Of a DNA stretch of 64,000 bases, positions 13,160 to 49,308 are shown in pieces. This DNA is from Amphiscolops sp. MND2022 (lineage: Eukaryota). The stretch lies in NCBI GenBank assembly GCA_964187785.1, contig OZ076409.1, positions 45,386,001 to 45,450,000 of the forward strand, given 5' to 3'. A model generated the notes under the pieces. That model had not been told where the DNA came from. It made no database searches and saw nothing but the letters and a program-made list of their open reading frames with translations. Made by a program: the position numbers and the translations under genes. Each line of letters starts with the position of its first letter. Within the stretch, counting starts at the first letter, position 1.

Positions 13160-14355
13160 TGGTGACAGGAGTTACAGAAACCCGCTCCACCCGCCCGACA
13201 TCCAGCTTCACAAACTTCAGGCGATACCAGGAAGACGACTCGGACGAAGAAGGTGAATCAACTCCTAGAAGCAATGAGGAACGACTACTCAATGCAATCG
13301 AGACGATCCCCCAACGAATCAAAAGCACCACCACCAACACAAAATTACTACAGACACACGTCCCAAATTTCAGAGGCCAAAAAGACAAATTCGTGGAATT
13401 CGAGCACCTTCTCCTCAACCACCTTAGCCCGCTCGCCAACAAAATCACCGAAGAGAACAAACTCCACTTCTTTCAAAGCCTTTTGAGAGATGATGCAATA
13501 GAGTACTGGCAATCCATCCAGATAACGCCACTAACAACACTGAAAGATGTGCTCGACCTCTTCAGGAAAGAATTCGCGAAAGAGGACCTTAAAGAAGTAG
13601 CTCGCTACAAATGGGATCAAGCCCGTTACGATCCCACCACAGAAACATTCAGCGACTTCCTCAAAAACTTGAAAAAGACTGCGAAACAAGCATTTGGGGA
13701 AGAAGCGGATAAAATCATCAAAATGTTCTTGTTCGGTAAACTCCCAGTCGAAATACAACAAGAACTTACGATGGCCAATAAGGAGGAGAGCTCACCAGAA
13801 GAAATCAAGACATACTTGATGAGAAAGTACCAGTACCAACAGTACGTTGCGCCACCTACGACAATTCAACCATTTAACGCGGTCACCTCCTCGGTCCCAA
13901 CGACCAACACAACGATTAAACCAGCAACAACGACGACAACACAACCGACAGAACGAAAACGATTTGAGGGACAATGCTTGTACTGCGGAAAGACAGGTCA
14001 CCGCAAAACAGAATGCCGCGCCCGACAACGTGACGAAGCAAACGGCATTAAGAAAGAAGATGCAATTCCGATGAAGAAAACAACCGACACAGACAAACCG
14101 AAGTACAATCCCAAGCTGGTTTGCCAGATTTGTGGATACACCGGCCACTCTGCAAGAGACTGCAGGCGACGCATTCCCAAGGAAAGCAGCTCTGCATATG
14201 GAAAGATTCCATACACAACAAATTCACAGGACGACAACAAGGCTAGACGACAAGATTTAAAACGACAGCAAAAGCCGATGAATCCAATGCAAGCAAATAC
14301 TGAGGACGACGAACAACTAAGCTACTCTGATGAAGACATTAACCAGGGTTTTTGA
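12851..14355 (+). CDS. gag: E2 gag; starts inside the LTR; 1-bp deletion near 13105 in this LTR copy
   Basis: The 3' LTR version (29351-29660) reads in frame ...HRVGLD into MVTG. Capsid-like region; two CCHC knuckles (CLYCGKTGHRKTEC, CQICGYTGHSARDC). Confidence 0.9.
13160..13171 (+). other. E2 primer-binding site TGGTGACAGGAG (tRNA-Leu-like)
   Basis: Abuts the LTR end, starts with TGG, identical to the E3 PBS; one mismatch from a typical tRNA-Leu(CAG) PBS (TGGTGTCAGGAG). Confidence 0.8.
14346..14352 (+). other. -1 ribosomal frameshift slippery site G GGT TTT
   Basis: XXXYYYZ heptamer directly before the gag stop; pol is in the -1 frame. Confidence 0.8.
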
Positions 14356-17300: not shown

Positions 17301-19445
17301 GAGGAAGACGAGCCTGATTACTTTCCCACGAGCGAACCACTCAGATGCAAACGCCAGAAGGATGTCAAAGAGATGAAATTGGCAACTGGCACTGACGTGG
17401 CTCATGACGATGGGAAAGGGATGAAGTTCACCAACTGTGAGAGAACAGCGGCCTCAGATGACTTCGCGACTGACAACCATCTGACGTACCGCCTCACAGA
17501 CGTGGACGAGCCAATTCAACTCTCGCAATTCATCCGTAAAGTATCATTATCACACCCGGTAATGAGTCAGGTTAGCCCCGTTGAGGGGATCGATCTAATT
17601 CAGGTCCAGAAAAATAACTGGGTTATTCAAAAAATGATTAGATTTTTAGAAGGTACTGAAATTTTGCAACACCCAGTTAATATGCAAGATCAGTTTTTTC
17701 AAAAGTTGCACAAAAATCGAAAACGCCTACAAGTTGTAAACGGTGTCATGTACAGACAGTTTTTTGATCACACGGGACTGGAGTCTCACAAGCAGTTAGT
17801 TGTTCCTGAAGACTGTATTTTGAAAATAATTAGGACTCTACATAACAGCCCGGTACAAGGACACCCTGGTTTAAAGAAAATGTTGTACGAACTTCGTAAA
17901 AGATATTACTCTCCTAACTTAGCCTGTAAAGTTCAAAAAGTCCTTGACGGATGTGAAAACTGCATGAAATCTAAAAGTGTAAAAGAAACGCAACTACGTC
18001 CACCGTTACAAAAAACCTACGACCCGTGCGACGGACCAGAAGACCTGTTAGAAATAGACATCGTTGGTCCACTCCCGGCGTCGAACGGTTTTACACACAT
18101 TCTGACGGCTGTTGACGTTTTTTCACGCTACCTGTTCGCCGTTCCGCTGAAAAGACCTGATACACATTCCGTAGTCAGAGGATTACTGTCGATCTTCACG
18201 AAACACGCGTATGTGCCCAAGCACATTCTGACGGACAAGGGCACGGCGTTCACGGCTGAACTTCTGTCTGAAATCGCGAAAGCGGCTGATATTCACATCT
18301 CCCATGCCACGATAAAGCACGCACAGACAATAGGCAGGGTGGAGAGAACGCACGCGAAACTGAAAAAGATCCTTAAAATTAGTGTAAACGCAGACCGACC
18401 ACAATGGGACCGCTATGTCGACATAGCAATCATGGCCCATAACACAACGTATCATGATTCACTGAAATGTTCACCAACTGAAATTTTCCACGGAAGAACA
18501 CCATACAACCCACTAGATCTGCAATTCCGAAACGCAAACAAACCGGCTGAAACAAAGTGCAAGGACGTGAACGAAGTTCTAGACAAAATGAACTTCATCT
18601 TCAGAGACAATCTAGATAACATCATTTCCGCCTATCATAAGTACAAAACGTACTATGATAGAAAAGCACGAGCACAGCCACTGAAGGTGAATGAATTTGT
18701 GTTCCTACTAGATCCTAAGTACGATTCTCAGAGAAGCAAAGAAGAGTTTAAAACGTTCCATTGGAAAGGACCGTACAAGGTGATCAAAGTGCTATCCGAT
18801 AGCAACTACATCATCCGCAAAGTAGGCACACACCAAACTCAGTGCGTACACAGAATGCGACTGAGGTTGTTCAAACCGGAATTTCCGATTGATGACATCA
18901 ACGTGTCCAAACATCTCTACCCAGACACTGAAAGGGTTGAAGACACGGACATTTTCGACTCGAATATTCCGACGACCGACGAAGTAGATCAGAATGAGAA
19001 TGACAATCTAGATCAAAACTTAGTCGAAGAAGAGCCTTCAGAAGAAATAATTCCACAGGTACAAGAACGACACAGTCCACAAGTAATTCCTCCAGAAATA
19101 ACCACGAGAATAGATTATCAGCAAGTAGAAACTGACCACAACAACTTTAGACCACCTACAGTTAGATTTGGAACGCAAGAGGAAATTATTCTACCGCCCC
19201 CCCGCGATGAAAGTAGGATAAGAGTACCTCTGAGAGACGAACAACACGAAAATCAGTCACAACAGACAAACACGCAAAGTGAAGATGAGGAAAGGATGAG
19301 TTCTAGACCTTCTAGAAACAATCAAAGTAGGTACAGGTTACGCGAAAACCCTACACCGAAAAAATATCCTGACTTCCTTATTCATGAGATTACATCAGCC
19401 AGAAACTCTCTGAGAAAGACCAACAAAGTAAACGTAACGAGTTAG
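14352..19445 (+). CDS. pol: E2 pol: protease, dUTPase-like insert, RT, RNase H, integrase; one in-frame TGA at 17025-17027
   Basis: LLDTGA; YVDD; CDASEHAAG/KEFLA; HPG..CENC; EIDIV/LTDKG/VERTH; WKGPY. Confidence 0.95.
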
Positions 19446-21628: not shown

Positions 21629-24600
21629 TTAATTGCCGATCTCCGGACTGGCAGCTCGTTCCCCACTAAGCGTGTATCCTAGCTTCGCATACAATTGGAG
21701 ACGATAATCTTCTCCGGCCACAATTCCGATGTCGTCCCACAACATACCCTCGTCCAGCTTCGCCAAATTGACCAATCGTCGATGTGACTCAGTCACTTCC
21801 TCTAACAAAGGGCCGCTCACACTGTCATAACTTTGGATATGATTAGCAGACAAATAGGCCAAAATCACAGCACAAACACAACTCGTGACATCGCTTCTTA
21901 ACTGCCCAAATCCATCGCAGCAAAGACTGCTTCTGCTCTGAACTCCTCCATCTAGGCATAAAACACTGCGAACCAGATTCTGAGCGCCACCACTAGAACA
22001 ATGGCGAAGAAGATCGATGACAGAACAACCCTCTGTACGTCCTGCTAGTCCCGGGTCACGTCAGATATTGACAAGGAAATCCAGAAAGCCACGTTCCATC
22101 CGACCCTGCTCCGCACGGGTGATCCGACCCAGATCCACAAGCACATCAGTGAAAATCCTGATCTCGTCTAATAGGACGTCCTCTGCAACAAAACTCAGAC
22201 AGGGCATACTGAAAACACTGCGCACAAACGACAGATCGTCTCGCACACCTGGGAGATTAATAACAGTCTTCACAACGGTTAGAATGAAAACCGGAACAAG
22301 TGACAAATCCTCTTCATATAGAGCGGCATTCGAGCCTTGATCGTCCACACAACGAAATCCGTCCAGCAACACCTGATGTTTCACTTCTGAGATTTCATAG
22401 CTTTCCACATTCAGAAAGAGCCATCCACGAATGTCCAATTCCGATGGTAGCTTTTCTTCCTCTACTAGCATCATCATCAGTGACTTCACAAAGGCAGCAC
22501 TCTCAATTGCCCAGTAGCACGCGCGCAACGTCGAAGACCCAAAACTCTTCTCGTAGGAGCTGATCACTGAAAAACACGAATCACAATTATCACAAGAAAC
22601 AACCAGGTTTAACATTACACCCACAACCGTAAAACTTCCAACTCGATCTCAACAAAAAAACCAAAACCCCCCCGTAACTTACAGAACTAAAGTATTACTA
22701 ACAAGCACGGTACACAAGACCAAGAACACGGAGTCTAATCGGAATGCCGATCTCAGCACGTAGTGTCAAGTCTAAGGCATCCAAAGGCCCTTCACCACTA
22801 GCGAAGCGTAGCAAGCATAAGATGTCAGACCAGTTCGTCCGTAACTCCTCGCACACATCGGCCAGGGTCCAAATGTACACCTCGCCGGTAAGAATCGCCT
22901 AAAATGTAAATAATACCATCCCAATCAATTCGATAAAATCAAACAATTACATCACGCCTACACACTTGCACAACACTAAAATTATTACATCATCCAATTC
23001 TCTAATATACTACGTACTTGCAGAAGTTGAGGGCATCCTAGCAACAGAGGATCTTTCACGTATCCTTTGAGACGTTTCTGTAAATGGTTCAGTACCACGT
23101 GAATGTCTGTACCCCCCAGCACTGATCCGGCCACATCCACAATTGCCCGACTGACATCTGACAGTCCCAGAGACTTCACGTCCAATGATCCGACTCCTGT
23201 GCTGCTTCGAAAGAGCCCACCCAGCTGCGGCAACTCATCGCAACACAGTCCAAGTGGGACTGGCTCACCGAGCATACAGCACCACATGTTCACTAGCCAT
23301 GTGATTACCCTGCTTTCCCAGTCTCGAACCACACTGAAGCTAAACACACAGTAGTGCTTGACCCCGTCTAACACACACACTGTAACAGTCCCTGTCACGC
23401 GCCCTCCCACAACTGACAAATGGAAGCTACTGTAAGTGCTATCGGTCCAGACAGCGATCAGTCGCCGCATCACGTACGGCCACAGCCCTAATACGATCAC
23501 GCTCTAAAACAAAAACGCTGTGAATAAAACATAAAAAAAGCATCCACCCTACCCCCCACCCACTACTAAAACTAGAAGAACACATAATGGCCAAAAGTAT
23601 GACTAAAAAACATACGAGTAGACGCTTACCATGACATCGTTCAATCCGCATTGCGCCCCAAACAAGACCGCATGTTGGGGATCGGAAGCCACCAACACTT
23701 CCCACAGGTTCGTGACACTGGCAAACTGACAATCACGATATAGGGCGTCCACAACAAAGCAAATAAACAGACGAACAGTTCGCTCTGGCCAGTCTTCCCC
23801 TTCCTCTTCGTCGCCCCACACAGGTCGTCCAGCACCCTCCAACTCGAAAACTTCCACCACATTAAGTGATGGACAGGTCTCTATGAAAGGCACGGACACC
23901 CCCTCCAGGTTCACACGGCATTCTGCACTTTCGTCACTTGTCATGAGAGTTCCATCACGTCGCCGCAACGGTAGCCCTCGGTGCAGCCGTACCACACAAT
24001 CCAGCCGATGATGGCCTAGGCCTCGGCAGTGCTCCATAAAGGTGGTAATGCCTCGGCTGCCCACCTTAACATCTCTCTTGCACATTAGACATCGCACATA
24101 CGACATGCGCGACTCGTGATTGCGTGCATATCCTAGCGCCAGCCCGCAGTATGGATGATCAAACCATCCAGACTTGATCACTTTCTTTCCTGATAATCAC
24201 AACCACACAATATAGCAAAAGTAATACCATTACAAACCATCATAGACAACGACTAAAATCATCTGTTACACATCAGAAAAATTCGAAAAATGCAAAAGTC
24301 ACAAGTAAAAACCAAAAAAGTTCACCCGGAGTGATGAAAACATGATGTAAAATAATATTTTCATTGGAAATATAAGCGAAAAACGAAGAAAAAACAAAAA
24401 GATGAAAAAGAGATGTGTTTGCACACCACCAGAATGAAAAATGGAAACTTTAAAGAATGAAAAACTCGAACGATGGAAAACAGATGAATAGAACGACTTT
24501 GAACCAAAATTGAGATATTTTAGAGCGAAAACAACTTAACGATGAAAAAGAGATGTAAACTGAAAAGAAAACACTGAAAAATAGCGAAAACCGAAACGAG

Positions 24601-27475: not shown

Positions 27476-29660
27476 TGTCATGCCAGCATGATGGAAATGT
27501 AATCTACTTAATATCTGTAATGTAAATATTATGTCTTATGTACTTAGATATGGGCAATATGATGTCATATAATAAGGGCCATGGTTGTGAGCAACCCTAC
27601 GTTACTTGTACTTTAATCCCTTCCCCTTTTGAGTGTGAGTTATATATATTTACTTAATACTGAGCGCTCTAGTTCCGGTGTCCGCATAAATGATCTTGCC
27701 AGAATCTAGCCTTGAAAGTGCTATATTTCATAAATATTGGTTTGTCACGACAAGGGAGAGAAGTTTTCCGGTCAGACTGGACCGAGGAATATTGCAAGTA
27801 ATGGAAAATATAACTTCTACTAACTCCCCGCCTCAGAGTATGTAGTTGTGTCAAATTCCATTAAATTCATCACAAATTCATCGTCGAATTTGATGACAAT
27901 TTTGATCTGATCAGAAATTTCACTTGGATCCATCAGCGGGTTCAACGGTGTTTTTAACCAAAGTTCATCGCAATCCCATCCTTAAAGTTTGCGAGTGAAC
28001 AAAACATGGGACTTTAAACTGACTTTCATCAGAAATCCATCAACGGATTTTATGGGACTTATTCTAGTAAAACTCATCTTCAATTCATCGTGATTATTTC
28101 ATTTAGTAATTCCTGAATGTGCTTCTCATTTCTAAAGAACAGTAGTCCATCCTTTATTCATCGCGTTCACTAGTACAGAAGAGAAATGAGAAAGTATATC
28201 CTTAATTCATCCTAAAAAAGAGTGAAAGTGCTGGTTATCTGATTTGTTTAGTAAACCCATCCTCAATTCATCTTGATTTCGTTTGTGCTGAAAATTAACC
28301 ATTTAAGCGGGTGAGTTCATCCTAAACTCATCGCCAATTTGTACTGCTTTGGTATTTGCTGTTTTAACTGACAAGTTCATCCTAAACTCATCGCCAAAAT
28401 TCTCCTGTACTAGAATTAGCGTTTATCGACTGAATTCATCCCTAATTCATCGTCATTTGAATCTGTGCTGGAAATTGGCAAATTATGCATGGAGTTCATC
28501 CTTTTGTCATCGTCAGTTTGAATTGTGTTGATTTCTGAGCGAGAAAGACTATCATTCATCGCATTTTCATCCAGAGCAAAACTAGACTTGGAAATCAGCA
28601 AATATTCTTACAAGTTCATCGCATTTCCATCTTCAAGTTTTAAATCATTGATTTTGGCGCTTAAATCAGCGGAAAACATCGTTTTCCCATCCCAAAGTGT
28701 GCTTCACCTTAAATTTGATTGAAATTAGTGCGTTATTGAATGATTTGAGTCCATTTTAGTTGCTATAGAAACCATGATGTTATGTGCAGGCAATTGCGAC
28801 ATTGTAAATTGATGACTAAACACCATTAACACATGTAAATGTACCATGGTGCGTGGCCACTTTGCGGCAGTTCACAACACTGGTCACGTGACTTACCATT
28901 TTAACACCAGCTGGTAACAGCCAATGAGAGAAGGTTGGTAAGAGATTTAGCGTCTTACCAACCGAAAAGACACGTGAACTGCTGTAATTTGGACCGCCAT
29001 TAAATATTACTCAGCCCGAATTGCGACAAGCTACCGACCAGTTGGATATTTTAACACGCAAAAGTCAGAAAACACATCTCTATTTCATCTTCAGAAATTG
29101 AGAAATTTCAACTGAGTGATTTCTTGGTACATCTACGACTGCGATGAACATTGGATGAACTTCTTCTGAATAACTTGCTAGTTTTCTTTTCCTTATATAA
29201 CTGCTTACTTATTTGTACGACTACTTTCTAAAACATCTCAGTTCAAATTAGTGAATTTTGGGATCGAACATTCAGTTAAATCAGCAAGATACATCGAAAA
29301 CACATCTCAGATAATTCAGTCCTCACTCATAATTCTTTTCTCTCGAATACATGAATCCGGACCAAGGCACTGAACTTAGAAGCGGTAGAGTTATACATTC
29401 CTCGTCAGGAACATCTTCTCCAATAGATCCAGACATGGCTCAATCGTCCGCCAATGACTCTGACAATAACGAACCTTCAGATATCTCGTCCCAATTGTCT
29501 GAAATAAAAGAGAACTATGAGAAGAAGATAAATGAGTTACAAAGCGAATTTAGTCAACTGAAGAACTTATTGATGGCAGTTATTAGTAAAAATGATGAAA
29601 ATAACTTACCTTCAACATCGCAAAGTTCTTCAAAGCCGACCCACAGAGTGGGGCTCGACA
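27476..29660 (+). repeat. E2 3' LTR (2185 bp), containing an intact copy of the gag N-terminus (29351-29660)
   Basis: Direct repeat of 10976-13159, followed by TSD GCTAT. Confidence 0.95.
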
Positions 29661-33400: not shown

Positions 33401-33412
33401 TAAATTAGCGCA

Positions 33413-34900
33413 TGTGATAATCCTCTATTAAGTCTGCGTCAGATTCTTCGTCTGAGCGTATTGTTACATCTATATCCGATTCAGCTCGAAACATAGGCTT
33501 AGCAGGATGTCTCAAGTCTTTCATTTTAGAAGCTCTTAGAGGATGATCTTCATTTTCTGAGTCTGAATTTTCGTTTAAAGATGCGTGAACTCCTATAGAC
33601 TTATCTCTGGATCCCGACGGCTGAGTATTTTGTGTTTCATTTGTTTCCGATCTTGGATTTGTGATTGTAGATTCATTTTTGTTAGTTTTGATTTCTTTTA
33701 AGATCGCTTCAAACTTGCTATCGATTTCTTCTCTCATTTTCCCTATTCTGTCGTTGTTTCTTTTCTCCATTTCTTGTGTCCAAACTTGAATCTCATTACT
33801 GATTAGACTGGGTTCAGTTAATTGATTTTCCAAGATGTTAGGACCTAAATTTTCTTGATCAACTAAGTTAGAATTAGTTAAAGTCGTATTACCTGGGTTT
33901 GGAGTCTCTACATTCTCCTCTCTGCTTGGAGAAGGAGTTTCCAACCTTCTAGACCTTCTACTTCTCTTGTTTCCCATTCTGCTCAAGTGAAAATGTATTT
34001 CGGTTGCTGGGGAAGAATTTCAATTATCTTTCGGTATCTCAAATCCAAAGAAGGATCAATATAGTCAAGAGAAAAGTTTCGCAAAAGACAGAAAGGTTTA
34101 CAGCAACTGTTTTGCACAAGGTAGAAATGATGAATGACTGATTCCCAACACTAGAAACTCCAGAAAATTAAAAGCATGACACCCCTTTTTATCGCAATCA
34201 TCATCAGAAAAATATAAAAATAGAATTTCATCATCATGACATCAGGTTATATATATCTCAGTTACATGACTTTCAGAAGAATAAACAGGACCCTAGAAGG
34301 CCTGGAAACAGCACAAAATGACGTATGAAGTTGTGTTAGTGGTTGGAATTCTCAATACATTGAAATGATATAATGAATGAACAATTAAAGCGAAAAACGT
34401 ACAGTAACGAGTATACGCTACTTCTCGAACCGCGTAATGCCGCATAGTAAAAAGTGCATAGTGACGAGTATACATTATGCTTTAATCCGTAGGATGCCGC
34501 ATAATCCAATTACGAAAGACGCATACTTGCGAGTAGTCAACATATCTCAAAACGCATAATGACGTATAGTCATTAGCACATATGATCATCTGATGACGTC
34601 ATATCTTAAAAGCAATATCAAATGGAAGCCAATTAGTCATTCAATGTGATTTTTGGGTATAAATCTCTAAGTTTTGGCTACGTATGACTCTCCTATCGCT
34701 CGCAAACAACTTCATTTATGAAAAGCATCATTAAAAATATTTGCATGACTATGGCAAATTAACAAATAAAGTTTTGCAAGGTGTTTGTTCAAGTTCTTCA
34801 AAGTCTATTTACGATGATTTCTGGGTGTTGATATTGTCGCTGCTCGCATTCATCTCTCATTGCTGCACCACGGGTCCAGTACAGCTGTATGGCTGGAACA
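33413..34900 (-). repeat. E3 3' LTR (1488 bp), carrying a duplicate gag N-terminus
   Basis: About 99% identical by eye to 47821-49308. Confidence 0.95.
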
Positions 34901-35915
34901 GTCCCGCTCTTTTGAAGATGAATAGGGCAGCTTCAAAACCATCTATGAACGCTCTAGAGCGGACTCCACGGTCTCTAACGGTTTCACCGTCATAAGCTGT
35001 AGCTGCGAGATATTCTCCAAGGGTCTCCAACGCTATCTGGTCGTAAGTTTTGTTGCAATACTCGCATATTCCGGCCACATTAGGCATGACTGTTGGGAAC
35101 AGCCTAGAGTTGTCTCTTTCATTGATTGGCATGTATAGCACGTTAGTACTGTGTGCTACAGCAAAGGGAAATCCGACTTGTACCATTGGATGTATTGGGA
35201 CTGGTACCGTAGGTAGTATGTCCGGAACTCCACGTGGAGGAAGTTGAACCACTAAGGGGGTTGTGTTTGACACATGTGCCCTCTGGATCTCATTGTAATT
35301 GGGTAGGATTAGCACACTCGCTTGACCCTCATCTTGGCCTGCATTCTGTGTGATGTTTTGCCCATTGTTTACACTCCTGTCCCAATGGTGAAAATCTGAG
35401 GAATCGGGATGATGGTTTGGTGGGTAGGTTGGGATTATTTGACTCGCGGCGTCAGACTGGTGTTCAGCATTTCTTGGGGTAGGTAAGATTGCTGCAGCCG
35501 GACGACCATAGCTATTCAACCTGATATTAATATCAGGGTTTGGATTGCTTGAGGGTTCATTTTCCAGTTCCAGATCGCTATCAATAAATGAAGGGAGCGA
35601 TAACGGAGTTGACGGCAGATCTTCTTCAACTAAGTCCATTAGTTCCCTTTCAATTCTCGTTCCTCGGACGTCTATTGTATCCTGAGTAGACATTTCGTTT
35701 TCTCCCGTGGGGAACAATAATGCTGTGGTAGCCCCCATAAATGCAGTCATGGAGTCTTCTTCTGTCGTATTCACCCTGAACCTGTCCAGCAATTGAGGAA
35801 CATTTCCAGGTTCGACGATGAATTCGCTATCTGAATTGCTTGAAATATCGATAACGTCGGGTGACAGAGGCGAGTACAGGGTATCTTCTTCTATGGCAAA
35901 TTGCAAGTGATTCAT
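34857..35915 (-). CDS. E3 sense 3' accessory ORF, 352 aa; crosses the PPT and ends 44 nt inside the LTR
   Basis: Intact ATG-to-stop frame; acidic/Pro-rich N-terminus; C-terminal CEYC plus helical domain. Confidence 0.75.
   Translation of the reverse strand: MNHLQFAIEEDTLYSPLSPDVIDISSNSDSEFIVEPGNVPQLLDRFRVNTTEEDSMTAFMGATTALLFPTGENEMSTQDTIDVRGTRIERELMDLVEEDLPSTPLSLPSFIDSDLELENEPSSNPNPDINIRLNSYGRPAAAILPTPRNAEHQSDAASQIIPTYPPNHHPDSSDFHHWDRSVNNGQNITQNAGQDEGQASVLILPNYNEIQRAHVSNTTPLVVQLPPRGVPDILPTVPVPIHPMVQVGFPFAVAHSTNVLYMPINERDNSRLFPTVMPNVAGICEYCNKTYDQIALETLGEYLAATAYDGETVRDRGVRSRAFIDGFEAALFIFKRAGLFQPYSCTGPVVQQ
34901..34913 (-). other. E3 polypurine tract (AAAAGAGCGGGAC)
   Basis: Purine-rich run directly upstream of the 3' LTR on the element strand. 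Confidence 0.6.
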
Positions 35916-36749
35916 CTTGTGGATTCTCGAGAAGTTTCAATTTGGAATATTATTTGCAAGTTTGAAAATCTGTGTTTTCAGACGACTGATTTGTGAGTTT
36001 GTGGAGACCAAATGGTGTCGGTTATTTCGCTTTCTTCTTTCCAAGGCAAGGAAAACCCGCGAAAAAATTGCTTGTCATGGTCTGATCTCCCAAATCCCCT
36101 TATAAGGGTTTCTTTCAGGCTTCTGATCATGAGACACGTGGATGATATTTCGTAAACAAATTCCTTTTTAGGTGTTCCAGTTTTCTACATCACCTTATTT
36201 CCTCTCATCAGCGTCTTCCACACCGTTTCATCGGAGTTTTAAATGATACGTAAACAAATTTAACCTAACATCAAAGTAGAAAGAACGAAAATGTGATTTA
36301 CAAGATGTGCCTAGTTTCTGAATCTAAAATATATTTATCTGGAATTGCATGACTGGAAGCAAAGAAGATACAAATCATTAAAAAAGGGGTTCATATTAGT
36401 CAAATCATGTTCTAAAAAAAGCTTTAGCTGTAAGAAGCGTTTTGTTTTGTTTTAGTCCCGCACTTGAAAAGTGCGTATGGTTCTGTTTTTCCATATGATT
36501 TCAATGGAACAAGTGAAATTTAGGATAAAATTACATAAAAGAGTTTCTGACTGAGATATCACATTGATGTCCCAATGGCACCTTAAATCTCGTTCGAAAA
36601 AAGCAATGAATGCATACATTCTATGCATATTAATAACATCAGAAGTTCATTTGTGATAATTAACACGTAGTTTCTTTAGTTTGTTACGTAATAATGATTC
36701 ATTCACACAATATTAACATTGGTTCATCTCTGTGGACACATACAGCGAG

Positions 36750-36905
36750 AACCGCAGGGTGGCGAGTATACGTCATTGCTCAATCCGTATAATGCCGCAT
36801 AGTATTCAGCTGGCAATTCCGCGTACTGCCGCATACTCATCACTGCAATTCCGCATACTGCCGTATGCTCGTCTCCAGTCGATCCGCATACTGCCGCATG
36901 CTCTC
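36750..36905. promoter_or_regulatory. E3 CGCATA-N4-CGCATA array (about 33-bp period) between divergent genes
   Basis: ccgtataatgccgcata, ccgcgtactgccgcata, ccgcatactgccgtatg, ccgcatactgccgcatg; CCAAT at about 37020. Confidence 0.65.
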
Positions 36906-37308: not shown

Positions 37309-40300
37309 ATGGACCCAACTCAGAAGACAGAATTATCTGGGAAACGGAGGACGCGAAAAGACCAAGTTCCCGATTTTCGAGGCGGAGCTAGAGATTACAA
37401 TCCTTCCTTCCGATACAACACAGGTTGGTTCGATTTGTTTCTCAGAATTTAACTCGATAAGTTTCATTCAGAGTGAATTTTTGATCCCTGTCAAGCTGGC
37501 CAGGCTTGCAGCTGAAAGTGATCTAGATATTCAGACCAGATTCAGAATTTTTTCGAAACGTTTCCGTTTCTAATTTCTAAGTGACTTCCGCTTTCTCTAT
37601 TCATTTCCTGTCCCCGCGTCCGGATTCAGTCAATTTTTAACTTCCGTCACTTGACATAGTTTTTATTTTTTCTTGTTTATCAACAAGGTAGCGTGTTTTA
37701 GATGAACCAGAAGCTCCAGAAACTTCTCCAGCTAAATCGCCTGCCAAATTTTATACTTCGTTGGTGTCCACTTCTCCAGCCACACCACGAGTCCGTCCCG
37801 GGACAAAAACACCCAGTACCCCAGGTCTTCAAATCGACGAGGGGATAAGAGTAGAGGTTGATCGCAGCTCAAATTATTCCTGAGGCCTCTCCACCAAAAT
37901 CAACAAGTTCCCGATCTCGTTCAGGAAAGGATTCCTCAAATTCAAGGCCCACAAGTCCACAACCACCCACGACTCCTACCCGCAACATGGATAGTTCAGT
38001 CCATATGTTAGACCACGAGGTATACAGGGGGTTTGAGATGCCAGGTACCTCACGAGTTGAGCCGACCCACTTTGATCAGTTTCTTGGGCAAGCTGTAGAC
38101 GAGATTCCCAATCAAATCATTTCCTCGACTGTTGAACACTGTAATTCGCAAGACATCGACCTAGTAGAGGTCACCCATGAAGCTGTTGCAGCAGGTAGTT
38201 ACCCCGACACGTCTCAACCCAGCCTTAGCATTACGAGGCAAGAGATTCTCACTTTGACGAGTGTCTTGGAGCGTATCCCCCAAACTTACCTGGTAGGGGA
38301 AGAGGTTGATCCCAACCGGTCTTTGTCTCTCATGATTGTAGACGAAAACGCCTTACCCCCATTGATAGCTTCTTCAAGCCAAGATGACACTCCTGCGCAG
38401 GCTACCTCCGAAGTAGCACAAGTTGTTGTCAATACCGGGAATCCCATAGCAAGTGGGAAAAGACGTAGGCCCAATTATTCCCTTACAGGGTCAATGTTCA
38501 GGAAACACCCTGTATTGAAATTTTCAGCCACTGGCCCCTTGGACCGGGACAAGACACCTTACAAGTGGTGGTGTAGGGTGTGTAAGAGTGAACTCTCTTT
38601 GATGAGTCGGGGAAGCCTCGAATTAATGTCCCATTATCGTTCAGAGTCGCACCTAGTCAAAGAACATCGCATCCGTATGGAGGTGCCTGGAATGTCTTTA
38701 TTTGACAAGGACGAAAAAGAACTGCTTGGACTTTCTTTGCAAGAGGCCAAAAAGAAAGCTAAGGATACGTATCCCATTGCACCACAATTGGATCCTTGCC
38801 GCCCATTAGTCGGACAAGACTCAGTGCCTGACTTCAGCGCAGCCAGTAGTCCCACTGCCAAAATTCTTTCTCAAATTACCGTTCTTGAATTTGGACTTCG
38901 CCATGGAGGGCACATAAACAGTCTCACTGGCATTTACGATGAACTTGTGAGGTTCAATTCTATGAGTCACTTGAGTACCCAGAATTGGAGCCAGGAGCGT
39001 CTTTTCGTTAGTATTTGTCATTGTTGCGTATTTCTTTTTCTTTCGACTTTGGGACATACTTAATTGATGTTCTTGTTCTAGGGGATAGTGGTACACCTGT
39101 TCCGTGAACTGATGGCCTACTGTGTGACAATGGTTAATTCTTCGGGATTTTACTCATTAGCATTACAACACACTCCTACAGCCTCTTTCATAATCTTGAA
39201 TTTCTGGTCGGGCAATGTGTTCCACAGAGTCTGCCTTGGTAGCACTCCACGAGGGATGTTACTCCCCCATAGGATCCTAAATTTCATTTCATCCTTCTTG
39301 TGTCTTTTTGAAACCTTCCCGACATGTGTCGCTGTTATCAATGTTGGAGACAAATTGGGCGACTGCTTATCTACCTGTCTCCCTGGAAAACAACAGCCTG
39401 CTAACATTCGAACCTTCAACCCAGAGGAGTTTGAGCGAAGCCTTTCAGTCCCCACCGCCCAAATCATAGAGCGACATGATTTCCGGACTATCCTAGATTT
39501 CTTGTTAATGAAATTGCGCACTGCTCTTGACAAGGATTGGCTGAAAAAACTACCCCTTCTTCACCAGGTAGACCTCATATTGTTTCTTTCAAGTAATCGT
39601 ATAGAGTAGTTATCCCATTCTATTTCCTTTAGAGTGTAATTCGCTTGGAGTATTCTCTCGAGGAAGCATCTTCCATCATCGAAATCTTGTCAAACAGTTG
39701 GGACCATGTCAAGGACCATTTGAACAGAGTCGCCCGGCTTCCGGTCTACCGATTCCATATGCGAGAGGTTATACCACATCCCAAAATTCTTTCTATTGAA
39801 TCAGGCTCCGGGTATTCCGGTTCTCCCTTTTCATCATGATCTTTTCGTTTCAGCCAAACACTTTGGATGAGTGTTTTCGACTCGACACTGCCTACTTGGC
39901 ACGACTCTTCGTTATAAGATGTGTCATCGATCACTGTTAGTTGTTTTCTTTGTTGCTATCAACATAACATTTCGACAGGTTTCGGTATTCTACCTCCTTT
40001 TCCATACAGTACCTCTTGTACTTATCCCCCTGATCTGTATAGTACTTCTCACACACATGTGTTGCTTGAACACTCATGTAAATGTCCGATTATGCTAATT
40101 CCGCACAATGACGTATGATCAGTACGTCTTGTTTCGTATAGTGACGCATAGTTATCCCCACTACTAGTGGTGGTAAAATATATACTTAATCATGCTAATT
40201 CCGCATAGTGACGTATAGTCACCACAGCTTGTTCCGCATAGTGACGCATAGTCGCCACAGCTTGTTCCGCATAGTGACGCATAGTCGCCACAGATTGTTC

Positions 40301-41577
40301 CGCTCGATCACGTATAAGTTCAAATCTTTCGAGGTGAGAACTTATATCACTAATGCATTTCTGCACGTGACGCGTATTGTAACTTTTACCAAAAGTTAAC
40401 ATTCACTTGTTCTGATTTATTCATTTATACTAATGGTAACAAACATCATTTTGTTTGGTGTGTTTTAGACAATTCTGCATTCTCTGAAGTCCAGTCAAAT
40501 GTCGAGGGCGGCTTCCGATTATTCAATCAATTTTCGGTATTCATTTATAGCCAGCTCCAGAGTATCTTGCCTGATGCTACACTAGGCAGCGTTTCTGATT
40601 GGGATGGGTTCCTACAGTTGGATTTGAACCAGCCAGAACTCCCTTTCAAATCAGCAGATGAGTATGTCCTAAATGAGGATTTTCACCGACTTGTTGTCGC
40701 AAGCAAACTGCCGCGCCCAAGCAAATTTGTAGACCAGTCCATCGCGTTCGGGAAGGCCTTGTGTAAACAATTGATGGAACATGAGATCGTCAATTCTGGT
40801 CTCGTTAAGGGTTTGTCTGCCTTCGATCCTGCGGTAATTCTTGATGGACCCGAAAGCCACTACATCACTGCCATAGAGAAATTGTCTAGTCATTTCGTTT
40901 CTATGAAGCTGATTACTTCGAGTGACAAAGCGAAGGTGACAAGTCAATACCGTTCCTTTGCCATTAAACTGCGGTCCGAAGCAATCCCGGCTTATAGTGA
41001 TTGGATTCACTTCCTTTCAGCTCATCACGAGATCCAATGTCGACCTGAGTTGTTTCGTCTATATAAGCTCTCCTGTCTATGTTTGCCCCCTCTTGTAGAC
41101 ATACCTCCGGAATTCACTGTCCCAATGCCCAAGTTAGCTGTTGATGCGGAGATGTTTGATTCATGCCTTAGAAGTCTCCAAATGTCATATTCAACAGTTC
41201 CTCACGTGTCCAGTTTATACAAGGATCCGAAGTCCGTGTGCAGAGTCTTCCGCCTGTTGGGTCGTGGATCCGATCTACTAGTGGACAAAAAGTTTTCCGT
41301 CTGGAACTTCTTAAAAGGAAGTGGTCCTCGTCGGACTGCAATGTTGGGAAAAATGGAGGCTGAATACCGAAAGGCAGTTCTACATTACGACAGGCCAGTG
41401 GTCACTTCAAACACTACTACTCCCAGTGTTAGCCGGGCAAGTAGCACACACAGCACTCCATCTCCTGATTTGTCTTTGGGCAGAGTTAATGTGTCGCTTA
41501 GTCGCTGTGCTAATGTATCCCCAGAGGGTACTGTGAAGAAAAACAATACCAAAATTGTGAAGGGCAAGAAAAACTAG
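37309..41577 (+). CDS. E3 antisense spliced gene: Ser/Pro-rich N-terminus, ZnF, degenerate hAT-transposase-like body
   Basis: Introns 39007-39081, 39568-39632, 39768-39853 and 39936-40468 join ORFs in frame. ZnF is WWCRVC..LMSHYRSESH; C-terminus has W..F....RPELFRLYKLSCLCLP. The 5' exons (37309-37423, 37702 onward) are tentative, with a frame break near 37855. Confidence 0.8.
40201..40303. repeat. 33-bp tandem repeat x3 carrying the E3 dyad, inside an intron
   Basis: ccgcatagtgacgcatagtcgccacagcttgtt repeated. Confidence 0.9.
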
Positions 41578-41800: not shown

Positions 41801-44800
41801 TTAATATCTGTATGTGTCAGAGTAGTTTGGGTTGGGATTAGGGCGTAAGTTGTACTTTTCACCACGGGTATTTATGGGTTCTTCTTGCGATGGGGTATTT
41901 TGGGTATTTTCTGGGGTTTTCTGAATATCATTGTCTGTTGAAGTATTTGTATCTTTTTGGGTTTTTTGGGTATTATTATCATTTTCTTCATTTACTTGTT
42001 GTGGAGTTTCGTCATCATGATTTTCATGGTTTTGATCTTGTTCAGTGGTCTGTTCCACTGGGCTCCCCCCACTATTTTTTGAAATTTCGAGGGAGGGAGG
42101 GTGGTTATTTTCGGGTGCTGTAATGGGCAGGTATTCAATATCTTCGATATTTTGTGAGTACTCTGGAGGGTTGTCCTCAAACGGGTTGGGGCCGAAATTT
42201 GTATTCCAAGATTGAGCATATAGATCATCTTGCGTTATCGGCAGTTGGTCATCTTTCTGCCAATCAGTTTCTCGTACGAAAATGTCTGCGAGGGGAGCTT
42301 GGGGGGTAAACTTCCTCAAGCGAATTCGATGCAGAAGTTGCGTCTTGTTAGTTCCTAAGCGTCTAACTATGTAGTTATTGTTAGGGAGGACTTTTTCAAC
42401 TTTATATGGACCTTGCCATCTAAATTCTCGAAAAGGTATCTTTGTTGCCTGGGTATCCGCCTTCGGGTTTAGGACGTAACAATAATCCGTTGTTTCAAGT
42501 GGTGATGCCTTTGCTTTCCTATCATAATATGCTTTGTATTTGAGATAGGATTGCATTATGTTCTTTTTGGTTTGGTCAAGCAGTATTTTCATTCTTCTTT
42601 GTACTTCCTCTGCTACATCTGTATGTGGTAGGTATTTTGGGTTAGGGTTGTATCCAAGCTTGTAATCGAGTATGTTATGGGGTAATCGCCCATGAAATAC
42701 TCGTGAAGGCTCACAACCCAGTGTTGCATGGTAAGTAGTGTTGTGGTTTAAGACTGCTAGCGGGAGAAACCTATGCCAATTGTTTCGAAATTCCCCCGTG
42801 GCAGCTTTAAGATGCGTTTTCACTGATGCATGAGTTCTCTCTAGGATTCCAATGGTTTGAGCGTGTTTCATCGTTGCATGCTTGAGCTCAATTCCTAGAA
42901 CTGCGGCTACTTCATGTGTGACTTGGGCATTAAATTGGGTGCCCAAATCCGTAATGATTGTGGTTGGTAGATATGTGTGTTTGCAGAGGATATCCATTAT
43001 TACTCGGGCTACAGCAGAAGCTGTAATGCGTGTTACTGGGTATGCAAACAAATATCTTGAAAAAACGTCTATCGCTGTGATTATGTGGTCATAGCCTCCA
43101 CTTGGAGGGAGATTGGGTAGGATGTCCATTTGAAGAATGTCTTCTGGACCAAGGTCCCATTCTGGACAGTTGAGAAGTTCAGTTCTGAGAAGATCATTGT
43201 TGATCCGTTTGGTTTGTATGCAAGTTTGGCAATTGGTGACCCATTTTTTGATGTATTTAGCGATACATGGGTAATAGTACTTTTGTCGGGCTTCTTGAAT
43301 CATCTTCGTAATACCTGGATGGTTTGAGTTGTGACCATGTAGGGCTTGAAGAAATTCTTCTAGAAGTTGAGCCGGAAGTAGTATCTGGTAATGTGAGGTG
43401 GTCCCCGTGTCGGTATAGTACCTGCGGGTGAGAACTTCTTGTTTGATTTCAATTCTAGCAATATTTTGAAGATAATGGTGGTATCTATAGTCAGATGCCA
43501 ACTCGTGTTCATCAAAAGGATGTCCTTCTATTTTTGCTCGTAAATTTCTGAGTACAATATCGTTGTTTTGTTCTAAACGAATCTTCGCATTGTCTCGGAA
43601 GTGACCTTCCGAACAAGTGTTTAAACCAGAAGTAGGTTTATGGAATTGTTGGAGTTCGGTTATGTTATTTTCTGGTTCATTGTGTGTCTCGTTTTGAGCT
43701 TGGTCTCGGATGTTCTGCTTCTCTTGCCATAATTGGTTTTCATCTAGTTCATCATCGGGGAGGATGTAAATCTGCTCTTCTTCTACGATCCCTGATGATT
43801 GTATGTTGACTTCAATTGCTTTGGTGTTGATGTCATTTCGAATTGTCAGTTCAAGTTTTTCAACTGGATTGACTTCGGTGCGTGAGAGGAAGTCAGCTGC
43901 AGTGTTCATTGATCCCGCAACGTGGGCGATTACAAAATTATATTGTAAAACATAATCGCATGCATTCCAAAGTGCCGGTGGGATAAGTTTTGCTTGAAAA
44001 AATCGGGTTACTGATCTGTTATCGGTGAACACAATTACAGGGAATGTGCTTCCCTACATGAGGTGTCCAAATTCAACAAAGGCAAAATATATGGAAAGGA
44101 ATTCCTTGGCATATATAGACATTTTTGTTTGTGTCGGGTTAAAAGTTTTGGAACCAAATGCTATGGGAGCGTATGTTTTGCGTTTTGATTGCAGTTTTTG
44201 GTTCGGGTCGTCTTCTATCATAATGGCATATCCCGCAGCAGTAAAGCTGGCATCGGACATGATTATGAGCTGTTTGTCTTTGAGGGGTTGTTTCAATGCC
44301 AATTGGCATGAATTTTCGAGGAGTTTATTGAGGTTGATGAAATCCTCTACTAAGTTTGTTGGCACATAGAATTTGGATGTTTCCTTGAGAAGTTTAAAGA
44401 ACGGAGACAGCCGTTCTGAGAGTCGTGGAATGTAGTTGCGATAGTAGTTTAGGAAACCTATATATCGCTGGAGGGCTTTTTTGGATTTAGGAAATCTGAG
44501 TTTAGACAGAAAGTTTTTGACTTTTTCTGCTTGCGGGGCGACTCCTTCAGGTGTGATTGTGCGTCCCAAGAAGTCAACTTGTTTGACGCCAAAGTGGCAT
44601 TTGGACATCGTAAGTTTGAGGCCAGCATTTCTGATGCATTCGAACACTGTTCTGATGTTGGCGCATAGTTGCTGGGCATTATTTGCAGCGATGCCAATGT
44701 CATCCACGTATTGGGCGCACTGGTCTGCTTTGATTGCTTTATCTAGGTACTCTCTCATGAAACTAGAAAATGCTGAGAGAGATCTGCTTAGGCCTTGCGC

Positions 44801-46708
44801 TAGTCGCCTATAAGCGAAGGTTCGGCTGGCAAAGTTAAAAGCGAGCATTTGTATGGATTGGTAGTCCGCCATTTGTAGGCAGTGGTAAGCCTGTGAGCAG
44901 TCCAATTTGCAGAAAAGCTTTTTCCCTGCCATATGTTGCGCTGCGTTGGACAATGTGCTTACCGGGTGGTTGTTATTTGTATAGTCTTCGGTTATCAAAT
45001 TGTTGATTTTCCTGAGGTCAACAAGAAGTCTAAGGCGTCCATTTGGTTTGCGTTGAGCAAAAATTGGACTAGCATATTTGGAGAAGGGTAATGTTGTTAT
45101 GATGCCGTATTTGTGTAGAAGGGCAAGTTCTACTGTAATGTCGTCTTTAAGGTTGATTGGAGTTGGCAGACTTTGGCTGTACGCTGGTCTGTCATCATTG
45201 GGTGTGAGTTTTACCTTGAATTCCCGATTTGTGCAAATGTCGAAGCGATGACGAGCAAAAATGTCATGGAAGTCAATGAGAATTTCTTCAATATGCTGAC
45301 GTTCTGCTTGGCTGAGTGTCGTATCGGACCAGTCAAAATTGGAAAGGAATGTTTTACGCGATTCTTCATTGTCTTGGGGGTTCAACTTTTCAAGTCGTTG
45401 CAACTCGAGTAGTTCGTCATATATTCGTTGTTGAATTGGGGTGTAGGTTGTAGGATCGCCTGGCTCCTCTGGAGTTGGGAACCAGTAGGTTTCTTGTTCT
45501 TGATTCTGTGGAGGAACTTTCAAGAGTTCATGTAAGTAGATTTCCGATGTATCGTCATGTTGCATCATGAACGATAGTATGGTTGGGTCTACTGGTTGTA
45601 TGTATTTGATTTGTTCTGGCGTCAGTATTTTGAAGTCCGCCAGGTGAGTGTCAAGGGGAATTGTGTATGGTAGTTCAGAAAAATTAATGATTTGGTACCC
45701 GATAGCATTATTGTTAACCGTGCTGAGTGACGATGTGATGAAGATGCTATCGTGTTGTTCAAATTGTTGGGATGGGGTTACAACTCCTGTTGCATCATGG
45801 TCCATGAGGTGAGGCATTCTGCTGGCTATGGCGAGGGTTTCGCCAGGTTGTAGAGTATAAGTGTTTTCTGCTAACAGTGGAGTTGCCTGACGCATAGTTA
45901 TTTGCGTATCAGGTTTAAGTTGCATTGAAAGATATGGAAATGTCAGGATGCCTTGAGTGACATCGAAGATGGCATTGTTCCGACGTAGGAAACAAAGGCC
46001 AATTAATGGGTTCGGTAAATTTTTCATGATGATGAAATTTTCTCTTAGCATAAAGTCAGCCACTTCGAATTCTAGTAAGACAGTGCCAATTGGGACTTCT
46101 AATTGTCCGTTGGCCACCATGATTTGAAAATTTGGCGGTGGGCCAGTTTCTCGGATTGCATCATTTGCTAACAATTTAATTTTGTTGAGATCCTGTTCGG
46201 AAATTGCACTCGTTAGGGCTCCTGTGTCTATGAGTCCGTCGAGAGTTAATTTTTCGAAGTCCATAGGCATGTAGTACATGTGGCGTTTACGCTTTAGTGT
46301 AAGAGAGGTTGATATTGGAAGGTATGATAGGTTTCGTTCCTTATCGAACTGTATATGTTCGGTGAGGTCATCATCAAGAAGAGGTTGCTTTTGTTCGTTG
46401 CAAGAAGAAATCGGTGGTTGTGGTTGTATCGTGGTGGTTTTATGTTGGGTTTGTGATGTTGGGTCGATTTGGGGTTGGTTTTGTGGTGTGGGTTGTTCGA
46501 AGTAGTTATCTGGTGCATCTCTCAAGAGTTCATAGTATTGATCTGGAGAGGTGTTCGGAGTTTCAGATGGTTCAGGAGTTGGAGGAGTAGAGTCAGGTTC
46601 AGTAGTTAGTCGTTTGAGTTGAATGTCTATGGTTTCCACTTGATGCTGCCAGTCATCTTGTGGTTTTATTGCGGCGTTGTTGTTAAGGCGTGGCGTTTCT
46701 AGTTTAAA
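41801..46708 (-). CDS. pol: E3 pol: protease, dUTPase-like insert, RT, RNase H, integrase; one in-frame TAG at 44054-44056
   Basis: LIDTGA; YVDD; SDASFTAAG; HPG..CQTC; QMDIL/ITDLG/LERTH; WQGPY; YNLRPNP. Confidence 0.95.
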
Positions 46709-48385
46709 TCCTTCGATGAGGATTGTTGGAGTCGTTCCATTTTGGGTTTGATGTGCTTTTTGGCTTGTTTGTAGTTCTCAATAATCTTTTTCTGGGCTTC
46801 TGTGAGGTTCCATTTAGGTGGGCGATTTTCCATGTTTTCGCCAAAATAGCAATTTTCTTCAGTGTGTCCTGGTGTGTTACAATTTTCACATTTGTCCGCT
46901 TCCGGATCTTCCTGAAGTTTGCGTCGCTTGGCTAGTTTTGGGCAATCGTTCATCATATGGCCCTCTTCTTTGCAATAACGACATTGGGTGTCTTTAAGGG
47001 TCTTGTTTGGGACTGATTTTGGCGTTTGTGTTTTGAGTTTATCAGGTTGTTTTTTTGTTGGTTTTTTCTGTCTTTTGTTCTTTTTTGGTTGCGGTCATCT
47101 GTGTTTTGACCATGGATTCATCGGATTCCAATCCGTTTAGTTCCATCTCTCGTTCGAGATGTTTGACGATTTGGTTATAGGTGCCATTTTCAAGGTATGC
47201 TTGATTAATGGACTTTTTGAGGTGGGGGGGCATCTTAGCATAAAGTAAATTCTCTATCATTTGATGCGCATTAACCCCAAACGCTTTTTCGGCACTTTCT
47301 TCGAGTTCTTCGAGGAAATCTGGGAGTTTTTGGTTTTCGGGGTCAAAGATGAGTCTATTGAATCTGTGTTTGGCAGATGCGCTGGACTCCGGTTTTACGT
47401 ATTTTCGTCGGAAAACTTTGAGAATGTCTTCTAATGTTGTTGTGGGCGTTCTTTGTATGTTTTTGAACGTTTTCAGTGCCAGGCCTCTCAGGTGGGCGTG
47501 GAAATGATTGATTTTCATGTCTTCTGTAAGATTCGGTTGCATTCTGAGTGTTGTGTGGAACAAGTCCTCAAAATACTCAAATTTTTCATTTTTCTCGTTT
47601 TTTCCATTAAATGTGAGTGTGTTTTTTGGGTGGAAGAATGTTTGTGATTCGTTTTTGTTTGCTAATTTTTCTATTGCCAGGGCAATTTGATTGACTGGGT
47701 CAAGGGGTGTTGCAGATGAAGTTGTTGTGTTCTGGGCTGCGTGGGATCCTGTTGTGTCGTTTAAAGACTGTGGGTTTTGCGAACTCTGTCTATGGAGTTG
47801 TCGGTTAGCTCCTGTCACCATGTGATAATCCTCTATTAAGTCTGCGTCAGATTCTTCGTCTGAGTGTATTGTTACATCTACATCTGATTCAGCCCGAAAC
47901 ATAGGTTTAGCAGGATGTCTCAAGTCTTTCATTTTAGAAGCTCTTAGAGGATGATCTTCATTTTCTGAATCTGAATTTTCGTTTAAAGATGCGTGAACTC
48001 CTATAGACCTATCTCCGGATCCCGACGGCTGAGTGTTCTGTGTTTCATTTGTTTCCGATCTTGGATTTGTGATTGTAGATGTGTTTTTGTTGGTTTTGAT
48101 TTCTTTTAAGATCGCTTCAAACTTGCTATCGATTTCTTCTCTCATTTTTCCTATTCTGTCGTTGTTTCTTTTCTCCATTTCTTGTGTCCAAACATGAATC
48201 TCATTACTGATTAGACTGGGTTCAGTTAATTGATTTTCCAAGATGTTAGGACCTAAATTTTCTTGATCAACTAAGTTAGAATTAGTTAAAGTCGTATTAC
48301 CTGGGTTTGGAGTCTCTACATTCTCCTCTCTGCTTGGAGAAGGAGTTTCCAACCTTCTAGACCTTCTACTTCTCTTGTTTCCCAT
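46699..48385 (-). CDS. gag: E3 gag; starts inside the LTR (MGNKRS); 1-bp frameshift in the homopolymer near 47050
   Basis: Reads through the LTR end and PBS (EDYH-MVTG); capsid-like region; knuckles CRYCKEEGHMMNDC and CENCNTPGHTEENC. Confidence 0.9.
46702..46708 (-). other. -1 frameshift slippery site T TTA AAC
   Basis: Directly before the gag TAG; the -1 frame is open into pol. Confidence 0.85.
47809..47820 (-). other. E3 primer-binding site TGGTGACAGGAG
   Basis: Abuts the 5' LTR; identical to the E2 PBS. Confidence 0.85.
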
Positions 48386-49308
48386 TCTGCTCAAGTGAAA
48401 ATGTATTTCGGTTGCTGGGGAAGAATTTCAATTATCTTTCGGTATCTCAAACCCAAAGAAGGATCAATATAGTCAAGAGAAAAGTTTCGCAAAAGACAGA
48501 AAGGTTTACAGCAACTGTTTTGCACAAGGTAGAATTGATGAATGACTGATTCCCAACACTAGAAACTCCAGAAAATTAAAAGCATGACACCCCTTTTTAT
48601 CGCAATCATCATCAGAAAAATATAAAGATAGAATTTCATCATCATGACATCAGGTTATATATATCTCAGTTACATGACTTTCAGAAGAATAAACAGGACC
48701 CTAGAAGGCCTGGAAACAGCACAAAATGACGTATGAAGTTGTGTTAGTGGTTGGAATTCTCAATACATTGAAATGATATAATGAATGAACAATTAAAGCG
48801 AAAAACGTACAGTAACGAGTATACGCTACTTCTCGAACCGCGTAATGCCGCATAGTAAAAAGTGCATAGTGACGAGTATACATTATGCTTTAATCCGTAG
48901 GATGCCGCATAATCCAATTACGAAAAACGCATACTTGCGAGTAGTCAACATATCTCAAAACGCATAATGACGTATAGTCATTAGCACATATGATCATCTG
49001 ATGACGTCATATCTTAAAAGCAATATCAAATGGAAGCCAATTAGTCATTCAATGTGATTTTTGGGTATAAATCTCTAAGTTTTGGCTACGTATGACTCTC
49101 CTATCGCTCGCAAACAACTTCATTTATGAAAAGCATCATTAAAAATATTTGCATGACTATGGCAAATTAACAAATAAAGTTTTGCAAGGTGTTTGTTCAA
49201 GTTCTTCAAAGTCTATTTACGATGATTTCTGGGTGTTGATATTGTCGCTGCTCACATTCATCTCTCATTGCTGCACCACGGGTCCAGTACAGCTGTATGG
49301 CTGGAACA
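47821..49308 (-). repeat. E3 5' LTR (1488 bp)
   Basis: Direct repeat of 33413-34900; TATA-like run at about 48656; CG-dyad cluster at about 48800-48980. Confidence 0.95.

Follow-up and report, generated by a model that had tools for sequence, protein, structure and literature searches.

A predicted multi-intron gene antisense to gag-pol in Ty3/Gypsy retrotransposons, its precise intron losses and its possible hAT ancestry

The window considered here is a stretch of 64,000 nucleotides, part of a 1.07-Gb eukaryotic assembly (Amphiscolops sp. MND2022, contig OZ076409.1, denoted C1). It holds three Ty3/Gypsy retrotransposons, E1, E2 and E3, in which Pfam finds the order protease, reverse transcriptase (RT), RNase H and integrase. 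In each of them, a set of frames lies between integrase and the 3′ long terminal repeat (LTR) on the strand opposite gag-pol. Judged from the sequence, these frames are the exons of one antisense gene that is almost certainly spliced and under selection. Its four introns, A to D, occupy shared positions in the three families, and D has been lost at least twice. Retroelements are expected to lose introns, but here a multi-intron gene persists in one while silent sites saturate. Taken as a whole, the picture that we lean towards, with moderate confidence, is a Ty3/Gypsy clade with an old, selected antisense gene, a hAT-derived self-regulator whose introns would be kept by their orientation and lost singly through cDNA.

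The Antisense Gene and Its Predicted Introns

The exons and introns of the gene in the window are as follows.

E3, plus strand:
37309..37423: predicted first coding exon, basic and KRR-rich; similar upstream peptides in 5/5 E3-type loci viewed
37424..37701: predicted 5′ intron, 278 nt, phase 1, GT..AG; less tested than A to D
37702..39006: exon coding for an S/T/P-rich linker and a C2H2 finger of BED-like type; in the window copy the frame is broken near 37,880
39007..39081: intron A, 75 nt, phase 0
39082..39567: exon A-B, 486 nt; its E1-type homologue has a predicted RNase H-like fold
39568..39632: intron B, 65 nt, phase 0
39633..39767: exon B-C, 135 nt
39768..39853: intron C, 86 nt, phase 0
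39854..39935: exon C-D, 82 nt
39936..40468: intron D, 533 nt, phase 1; array of ~33-bp period at ~40089-40310, kept in E3-type copies
40469..41577: last exon, helical domain and low-complexity basic tail

E2, minus strand:
23630..24196: zinc-finger exon, 5′ end not defined
23504..23629: intron A, 126 nt, phase 0
22899..23017: intron B, 119 nt, phase 0
22567..22702: intron D, 136 nt, phase 1; register against E1 and E3 exact in MAFFT and in a 50-row alignment, 4 off in hhalign
21629..22566: last exon; in-frame stop at 22063-22061 in the window copy

E1, minus strand:
5096..5457: zinc-finger exon; deletion and frame break near 5135 in the window copy
4972..5095: intron A, 124 nt, phase 0
4351..4971: exon A-C, 621 nt, uninterrupted at site B
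4261..4350: intron C, 90 nt, phase 0
4012..4178: intron D, 167 nt, phase 1
2864..4011: last exon

The first-pass annotation had listed introns A to D, and on re-check of the window all the coordinates that it gave proved correct, the introns having GT..AG borders; the 5′ intron of E3 is an addition to that list. Its distribution of sites among the three window elements also stands, with A (phase 0) in all of them, B in E2 and E3 only, since E1 lacks it, and C in E1 and E3 only, since E2 lacks it. The claim that D (phase 1) is in all three families holds for the window elements and fails for relatives, because two E1-type subfamilies are without it. With A, B, C and D taken out, E3 gives 782 stop-free codons counted from the finger, and spliced E2 gives 728 codons with one stop.

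Exon lengths match with no alignment needed. Exon A-B is 486 nt in both E2 and E3, exon C-D is 82 nt in both E1 and E3, and the 621 nt of exon A-C in E1 compare with 486 + 135 nt in E3. With E1 as the sole guide, a spliced aligner recovered introns B and D of E3 and the acceptor of C exactly. An annotation made from open reading frames (ORFs) alone breaks this gene into nameless pieces, as database entries show.

The array in E3 intron D (40089-40310) repeats a CGCATA/GACGTATAGT motif, which is found again upstream of the E3 antisense gene (36733-36902) and in both LTRs (34378-34570 and 48786-48980). TCCGCATA is present in intron D of 18/20 E3-type copies, in which that intron ranges from 371 to 672 nt. 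The array may be a reason for the length of intron D and for the fact that no loss of D was found in the E3 type.

Intron Calls Within Families

Fifty-nine more gene loci were fetched and one (L057) was left out; 61 copies were scored, each aligned to its family guide by a spliced aligner that was given no intron positions. The expected introns were recovered at the exact codon and phase in 200 of 204 cases. Their lengths vary widely and fall in all three length frames, and retention would break the frame for 197 of the 200. Because a spliced aligner favours splice signals, controls were run on the 50 copies that are not near-identical to their guide. A splice-blind alignment found 163 of 167 gaps, and 115 of these 163 had GT..AG exactly at their edges (expected, 1 in 256 per gap). 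With bare GT..AG allowed, exact placement was obtained for 162 of the 167, and GT(A/T)AGT came out as the donor consensus though it had not been weighted. The signal that an intron would have on the genomic-RNA strand, CT..AC, fitted in 1/167 cases, and a TG..GA control in 7/167. GT..AG borders, the donor consensus, a pyrimidine tract and a frame restored by removal are all present, as in U2-type introns, and we infer that the antisense gene is spliced.

It could be argued instead that there is no splicing, that the gaps are degenerate spacers separating distinct ORFs and that the matches are artefacts of alignment. The identity between the three family proteins, only 15–23%, speaks for such a reading, which we consider extremely improbable in view of the splice-blind and opposite-strand controls, the donor and acceptor consensus, the fixed exon lengths and the relatives whose read-through sequence equals the spliced product.

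Intron Sites Compared Between Families

The proteins are homologous across the families, as shown by hhalign (E1/E3, E = 1.5e-39; E1/E2, 1.4e-17; E2/E3, 4.4e-6), which bears out the earlier description of the gene as old. Intron sites were mapped, as the first-pass annotation had suggested, on an alignment of 26 spliced rows and two database proteins made in four MAFFT modes. Three of these, L-INS-i, G-INS-i and E-INS-i, give one column per site: A in 26/26 rows, B in 16/16, C in 18/18 and D in 24/24. By hhalign, site A is exact for E1/E2 and E1/E3, site B is exact and site D is exact for E1/E3 (posterior 0.997).

Several results weigh against a common position for some of the sites. The fast MAFFT mode splits C by 4 columns, and in an earlier 50-row alignment gap placement separates the C sites of E1 and E3 by 10 columns. 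In hhalign, A is 5 off for E2/E3 (posterior 0.06), C is 3 residues off (0.33) and the D of E2 is 4 off (0.90 and 0.56). The shift of D in the E1/E2 hhalign alignment requires two compensating 4-residue gaps, each of one helical turn; in the ungapped register, E1 and E2 alike keep a conserved Arg 11 residues ahead of the site and a conserved Phe 26 residues past it. The chance of three exact matches out of three among ~2160 sites is ~2e-9, or 2e-4 if 5 codons on either side are allowed. The shared positions of A, B and D (E1/E3) are firm and those of C and D (E2) probable. The original observation of common intron sites is confirmed as real and far beyond chance.

Precise Intron Losses

Among 81 spliced rows, scored with a tolerance of 9 codons, every E3 row (26/26) has the pattern ABCD and every E2 row (21/21) ABD, and the E1 rows show ACD (25), AC (8) or CD (1). 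The CD row is cut off, and one AC row is a decayed copy. The remaining seven AC rows (L123-L125 and L126-L129), which were found because the database protein P0083 reads through C and D, read through site D with zero codons added or missing. They form two D-less E1-type subfamilies that are 42% identical to each other and 55–61% identical to different D-bearing sisters. The two are separate in the antisense and the pol trees, and a tree that forces them together is rejected (approximately unbiased (AU) test, p 4e-5). Since they are not sisters, D was lost at least twice. No further intron loss was seen in 16 added loci (13 E3-type, 3 E2-type) chosen for long open frames.

Precise absences are those of B in the E1 type, of C in the E2 type and of D in the two E1-type subfamilies. 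The read-through copies are natural equivalents of the spliced product and, at the sequence level, support the junctions at B, C and D. Every pattern can be derived by loss from an ancestor with four introns, no gain being required, and repeated loss is the main process in the history of these introns. The first-pass annotation had spoken of intron gain or loss inside a mobile element; precise loss, and repeated at that, is what we find, and no pattern calls for gain.

In the RT tree, E1, E2 and E3 are three clades without a settled branching order. Depending on the root among them, C is either a gain in E1 + E3 or a loss in E2. It is this freedom that leaves some room for gain at certain sites (C in the ancestor of E1 and E3), or for exact genomic deletion, in place of a cDNA-based process. 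That E2 and P0083 both lack C, and that each loss takes one intron while neighbours 82–621 nt away stay, fits such an account as well. We judge it unlikely, given that D disappeared on two occasions, at the same base each time, in lineages that are nested among D-bearing ones, that the exon sums agree to the nucleotide and that the element has reverse transcriptase and template switching built in (PMC5131818). The clade offers dated, repeated and codon-exact losses beside the enzyme regarded as the general cause of intron loss.

Selection, Descent and Cassette Exchange

The ratio of replacement to silent substitution (dN/dS) of the spliced frame is 0.05–0.16 in pairs with measurable silent sites, near-identical pairs excluded. 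The near-identical pairs give 0.36–2.0 from few changes, as expected after insertion. By this measure the joined frame is under purifying selection.

The antisense tree has three clades matching the pol clades, and the comparison of gene and RT trees that had been proposed at the outset supports a long co-descent. Within the lineages the relation is different. The locus L046 differs from E3 of the window by a silent divergence (dS) of 0.02 in RT and 0.04 in integrase, and its antisense protein is 71% identical with silent sites saturated; L079 and L090 show the same mismatch of near-identical pol with a diverged antisense gene relative to E2. In all, L046, L079, L089 and L090 have an integrase silent divergence of 0.02–0.07 from E3 or E2 of the window and antisense genes 47–71% identical. 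The antisense gene is swapped as a cassette between elements with near-identical pol, within lineages. Vertical inheritance, as first claimed, applies between the three deep lineages and not within them.

The antisense gene or its last exon is also found in tandem within a few kb (G000: C6 9974390-9979991, C3 32523322-32531387 and C7 2717199-2720276). The last exon is matched by 981 protein clusters at 50% identity, P0083, P0138, P0071 and P0035 among them. Many of these clusters are only 25–50% identical to the families of this genome and come from short ENA contigs, which suggests that the gene occurs in other hosts.

Why the Introns Persist and How They May Be Lost

Of the 78 fetched copies, all of them picked by way of the antisense gene, 76 have integrase on the opposite strand and two have none in range. 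In the genomic RNA these introns appear with CT..AC borders, and the spliceosome makes no use of such borders. The introns would pass the RNA stage of the element unspliced owing to this orientation, as the first-pass annotation had supposed, and the explanation is sufficient: E2, with LTRs 99.2% identical and a 5-bp target duplication, keeps all its introns. Its near-identical siblings L071 and L072 do so too, and the introns of these young elements have therefore passed through reverse transcription.

In Tnt1 vectors, an intron oriented like the element transcript is lost on cDNA synthesis (PMC2923131), and LTR elements copy co-packaged mRNA through template switching (PMC5131818). We suggest that the element's own reverse transcriptase occasionally copies the spliced antisense message back into the element, the cDNA recombining with it so that introns would go one at a time. 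Such cDNA-mediated loss is, in our assessment, the likely course. Template switching between co-packaged genomes may likewise be the source of the gene swaps. If these proposals are right, hundreds of copies in one genome form a natural series of RT-driven intron losses, the order of which can be read from trees.

As to how the gene was acquired, capture through a sense mRNA would strip introns, and entry as DNA or as unspliced opposite-strand sequence is therefore most likely. We envisage an intron-bearing hAT transposon gene that would have entered the ancestor as DNA, by nested insertion or recombination. Transcription would probably start at an internal promoter on the 3′ side, and splicing would be carried out by the host spliceosome.

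The Protein, Its Fold and Its Possible Origin

The CxxC..H..H finger is conserved, and zf-BED is matched weakly in 3/28 rows (best E 0.0017). Most invariant residues cluster in this finger; the protein body is conserved too, not the finger alone. In a fold search with the predicted model of exon A-C, Hermes alone aligns across its full length, and two exons that were folded separately correspond, in order, to successive segments of Hermes. The predicted order finger, linker, RNase H fold and helical insertion is that of hAT transposases.

With the catalytic positions placed from the predicted structure and the DDE triad, no acidic residue is conserved in the 26 rows where strands 1 and 4 end, nor close to the segment that aligns with Hermes 573. 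The C-terminal dimerisation domain PF05699 is matched in 0/38 last-exon rows at E up to 1, no match to hAT was found at the sequence level, and no terminal inverted repeats were found near the gene at a minimum length of 60 nt. The predicted models give us moderate confidence that the protein derives from a hAT transposase and is without catalytic residues; the gene would have lost these residues and kept the BED-like finger. A different source, either a zinc-finger gene of the host or some other protein with an RNase H fold, the Hermes likeness then being a generic fold match, is suggested by the lack of sequence similarity to hAT and by VIA, in which the exon A-C model has many unrelated RNase H-like folds ranked higher than Hermes. 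We hold it to be improbable, since Hermes covers that model in full, the two exon folds fall on consecutive segments and the domain order agrees.

DAYSLEEPER is an example of a domesticated hAT gene. The protein may act in the nucleus and regulate the element that encodes it by binding DNA, possibly at the CGCATA-type repeats of the E3 LTRs, upstream region and intron D. We regard the self-regulator role as plausible at a little less than even chance. The same gene structure could also encode a protein that counters host silencing or aids integration through protein contacts, with no DNA-binding control of transcription, in which case an arms race with the host would lie behind the rapid divergence and the swapping. 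The antisense protein does diverge far faster than pol (47–75% identity among E2 subfamilies, with RT at 94–100%), and its exchange as a cassette and the conservation of its body beyond the finger are in keeping with such a role. The concentration of invariant residues in the finger argues against it, as do dN/dS values well below 1 in pairs that have measurable silent sites and are not near-identical, and this role seems doubtful to us. Returning to regulation, the fullest version, a tamed intron-bearing DNA-transposon gene serving as a DNA-binding regulator, its introns held antisense, traded as a cassette and stripped of introns stepwise by RT, is put forward tentatively.

The Elements of the Window

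The remaining features of the three elements are as follows.

E3:
33413..34900, minus: 3′ LTR, ~1.49 kb, with CGCATA motif copies; 98.6% identical to 47821-49308
34860..35936, minus: additional 359-aa sense ORF, arranged head to head with the antisense gene
41804..48427, minus: gag-pol with capsid, protease, RT, RNase H and integrase in Ty3/Gypsy order (Pfam); breaks present
47821..49308, minus: 5′ LTR, then a TGG start like a primer-binding site (PBS), as in E2

E2:
10976..13159, plus: 5′ LTR, 99.2% identical to 27476-29660; 5-bp target duplication
13105..19442, plus: gag-pol (Pfam)
27476..29660, plus: 3′ LTR

E1:
107..2673, plus: RNase H and integrase, decayed; RT upstream of the window
7502..7801, plus: probable 3′ LTR, sharing 91% identity with sequence located 3.4 kb upstream of the window; borders loose

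Gag followed by protease-RT-RNase H-integrase (Pfam) places the elements in Ty3/Gypsy, and E2 and E3 have paired LTRs and a PBS-like TGG start, E2 with the 5-bp target duplication as well. E2 is complete; E3, on the minus strand, has outer flanks that match at 3/5 bases. E1 is degenerate and extends past the left edge of the window, and its LTR evidence is partial, a 91% repeat of ~300 nt. The PBS-like sequence after the 5′ LTR is identical in E2 (13160-13172) and E3 (47808-47820), the RTs of which are just 65% identical. The E3 gag frame (47045-48427, minus) starts within the LTR, and its first part consequently recurs in the 3′ LTR (33408-34019). Between protease and RT, E2 has a weak dUTPase match (residues 294-374 of 14343-17024, plus; E 0.04, below the cut-off).

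The extra sense ORF of E3 sits between the antisense gene and the 3′ LTR and has no Pfam match. E1 perhaps has a second such ORF in the same place (6895-7596, plus, 234 aa). Elsewhere in the window, two short inverted matches (55307-55609 and 56668-56806), ~80% identical to the start of the E2 LTR, flank an N gap (56105-56304), and ORFs at 57894-58847 and 61617-63477 (plus) resemble, by eye, RT and endonuclease fragments of a non-LTR (LINE) element.

Comparison with Known Systems

Antisense ORFs between pol and the 3′ LTR (aORF-3R) are described in plant and fungal Ty3/Gypsy elements, among them Grande gene23, RIRE2, Retand TRP28, PvRetro13 and Boty (PMC7264820, PMC11963269). They have the same place and orientation as the antisense gene here, are present in most copies and are old; in our set, an ORF between pol and the 3′ LTR, opposite gag-pol, is found in 76 of the 78 copies fetched by way of the gene itself. 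The Grande antisense product is nuclear and has its own promoter, and TRP28 is predicted to bind DNA (PMC7264820, PMC11963269). Neither Pfam nor profile scans found PF04195, the TRP28 domain, in the antisense protein. The origin and function of the plant and fungal ORFs are given as unknown, with no likeness to other transposable elements (PMC7264820), and a nested DNA transposon is a possible origin for an antisense accessory gene of this kind. In contrast to those ORFs, the gene described here contains four or more conserved predicted introns, has lost introns precisely on several occasions and codes for a predicted fold like that of Hermes. The word ‘intron’ is absent from the main text of PMC11963269, and PMC7264820 urges a search for spliced antisense transcripts.

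The hAT transposases (Hermes; PDB 8sjd, 4d1q and 8edg) have a BED-like finger, an RNase H-like core and a helical region in the order predicted for the antisense protein. Unlike them, the latter lacks the conserved catalytic acids and PF05699, and it is kept by another mobile element and not by a host.

HBZ of human T-cell leukaemia virus type 1 (HTLV-1) and its relatives APH-2/3/4 also come from a spliced antisense transcript in a reverse-transcribing genome, and the protein controls transcription of its own genome (PMC10186651). In these retroviruses the 3′ LTR supplies the promoter, the differences between splice variants are confined to the region near the 5′ end, and the protein is of bZIP type. 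The gene here has several coding introns, a protein of ~1000 aa and a predicted internal promoter, and no homology is expected.

LTR-mediated retrocopies (PMC5131818) and Tnt1 vectors (PMC2923131) exhibit the template switching and the removal of introns through cDNA that we propose as the mechanism of loss. In those systems transcript-sense introns are lost in one round, whereas the opposite-strand introns described here persist and are lost rarely and singly.

A review of giant transposons (PMC6431247, available text) has nothing similar under intron, antisense or opposite, and no multi-intron antisense gene of an LTR retrotransposon was found in the literature searched, the scope of which excluded most subscription papers.

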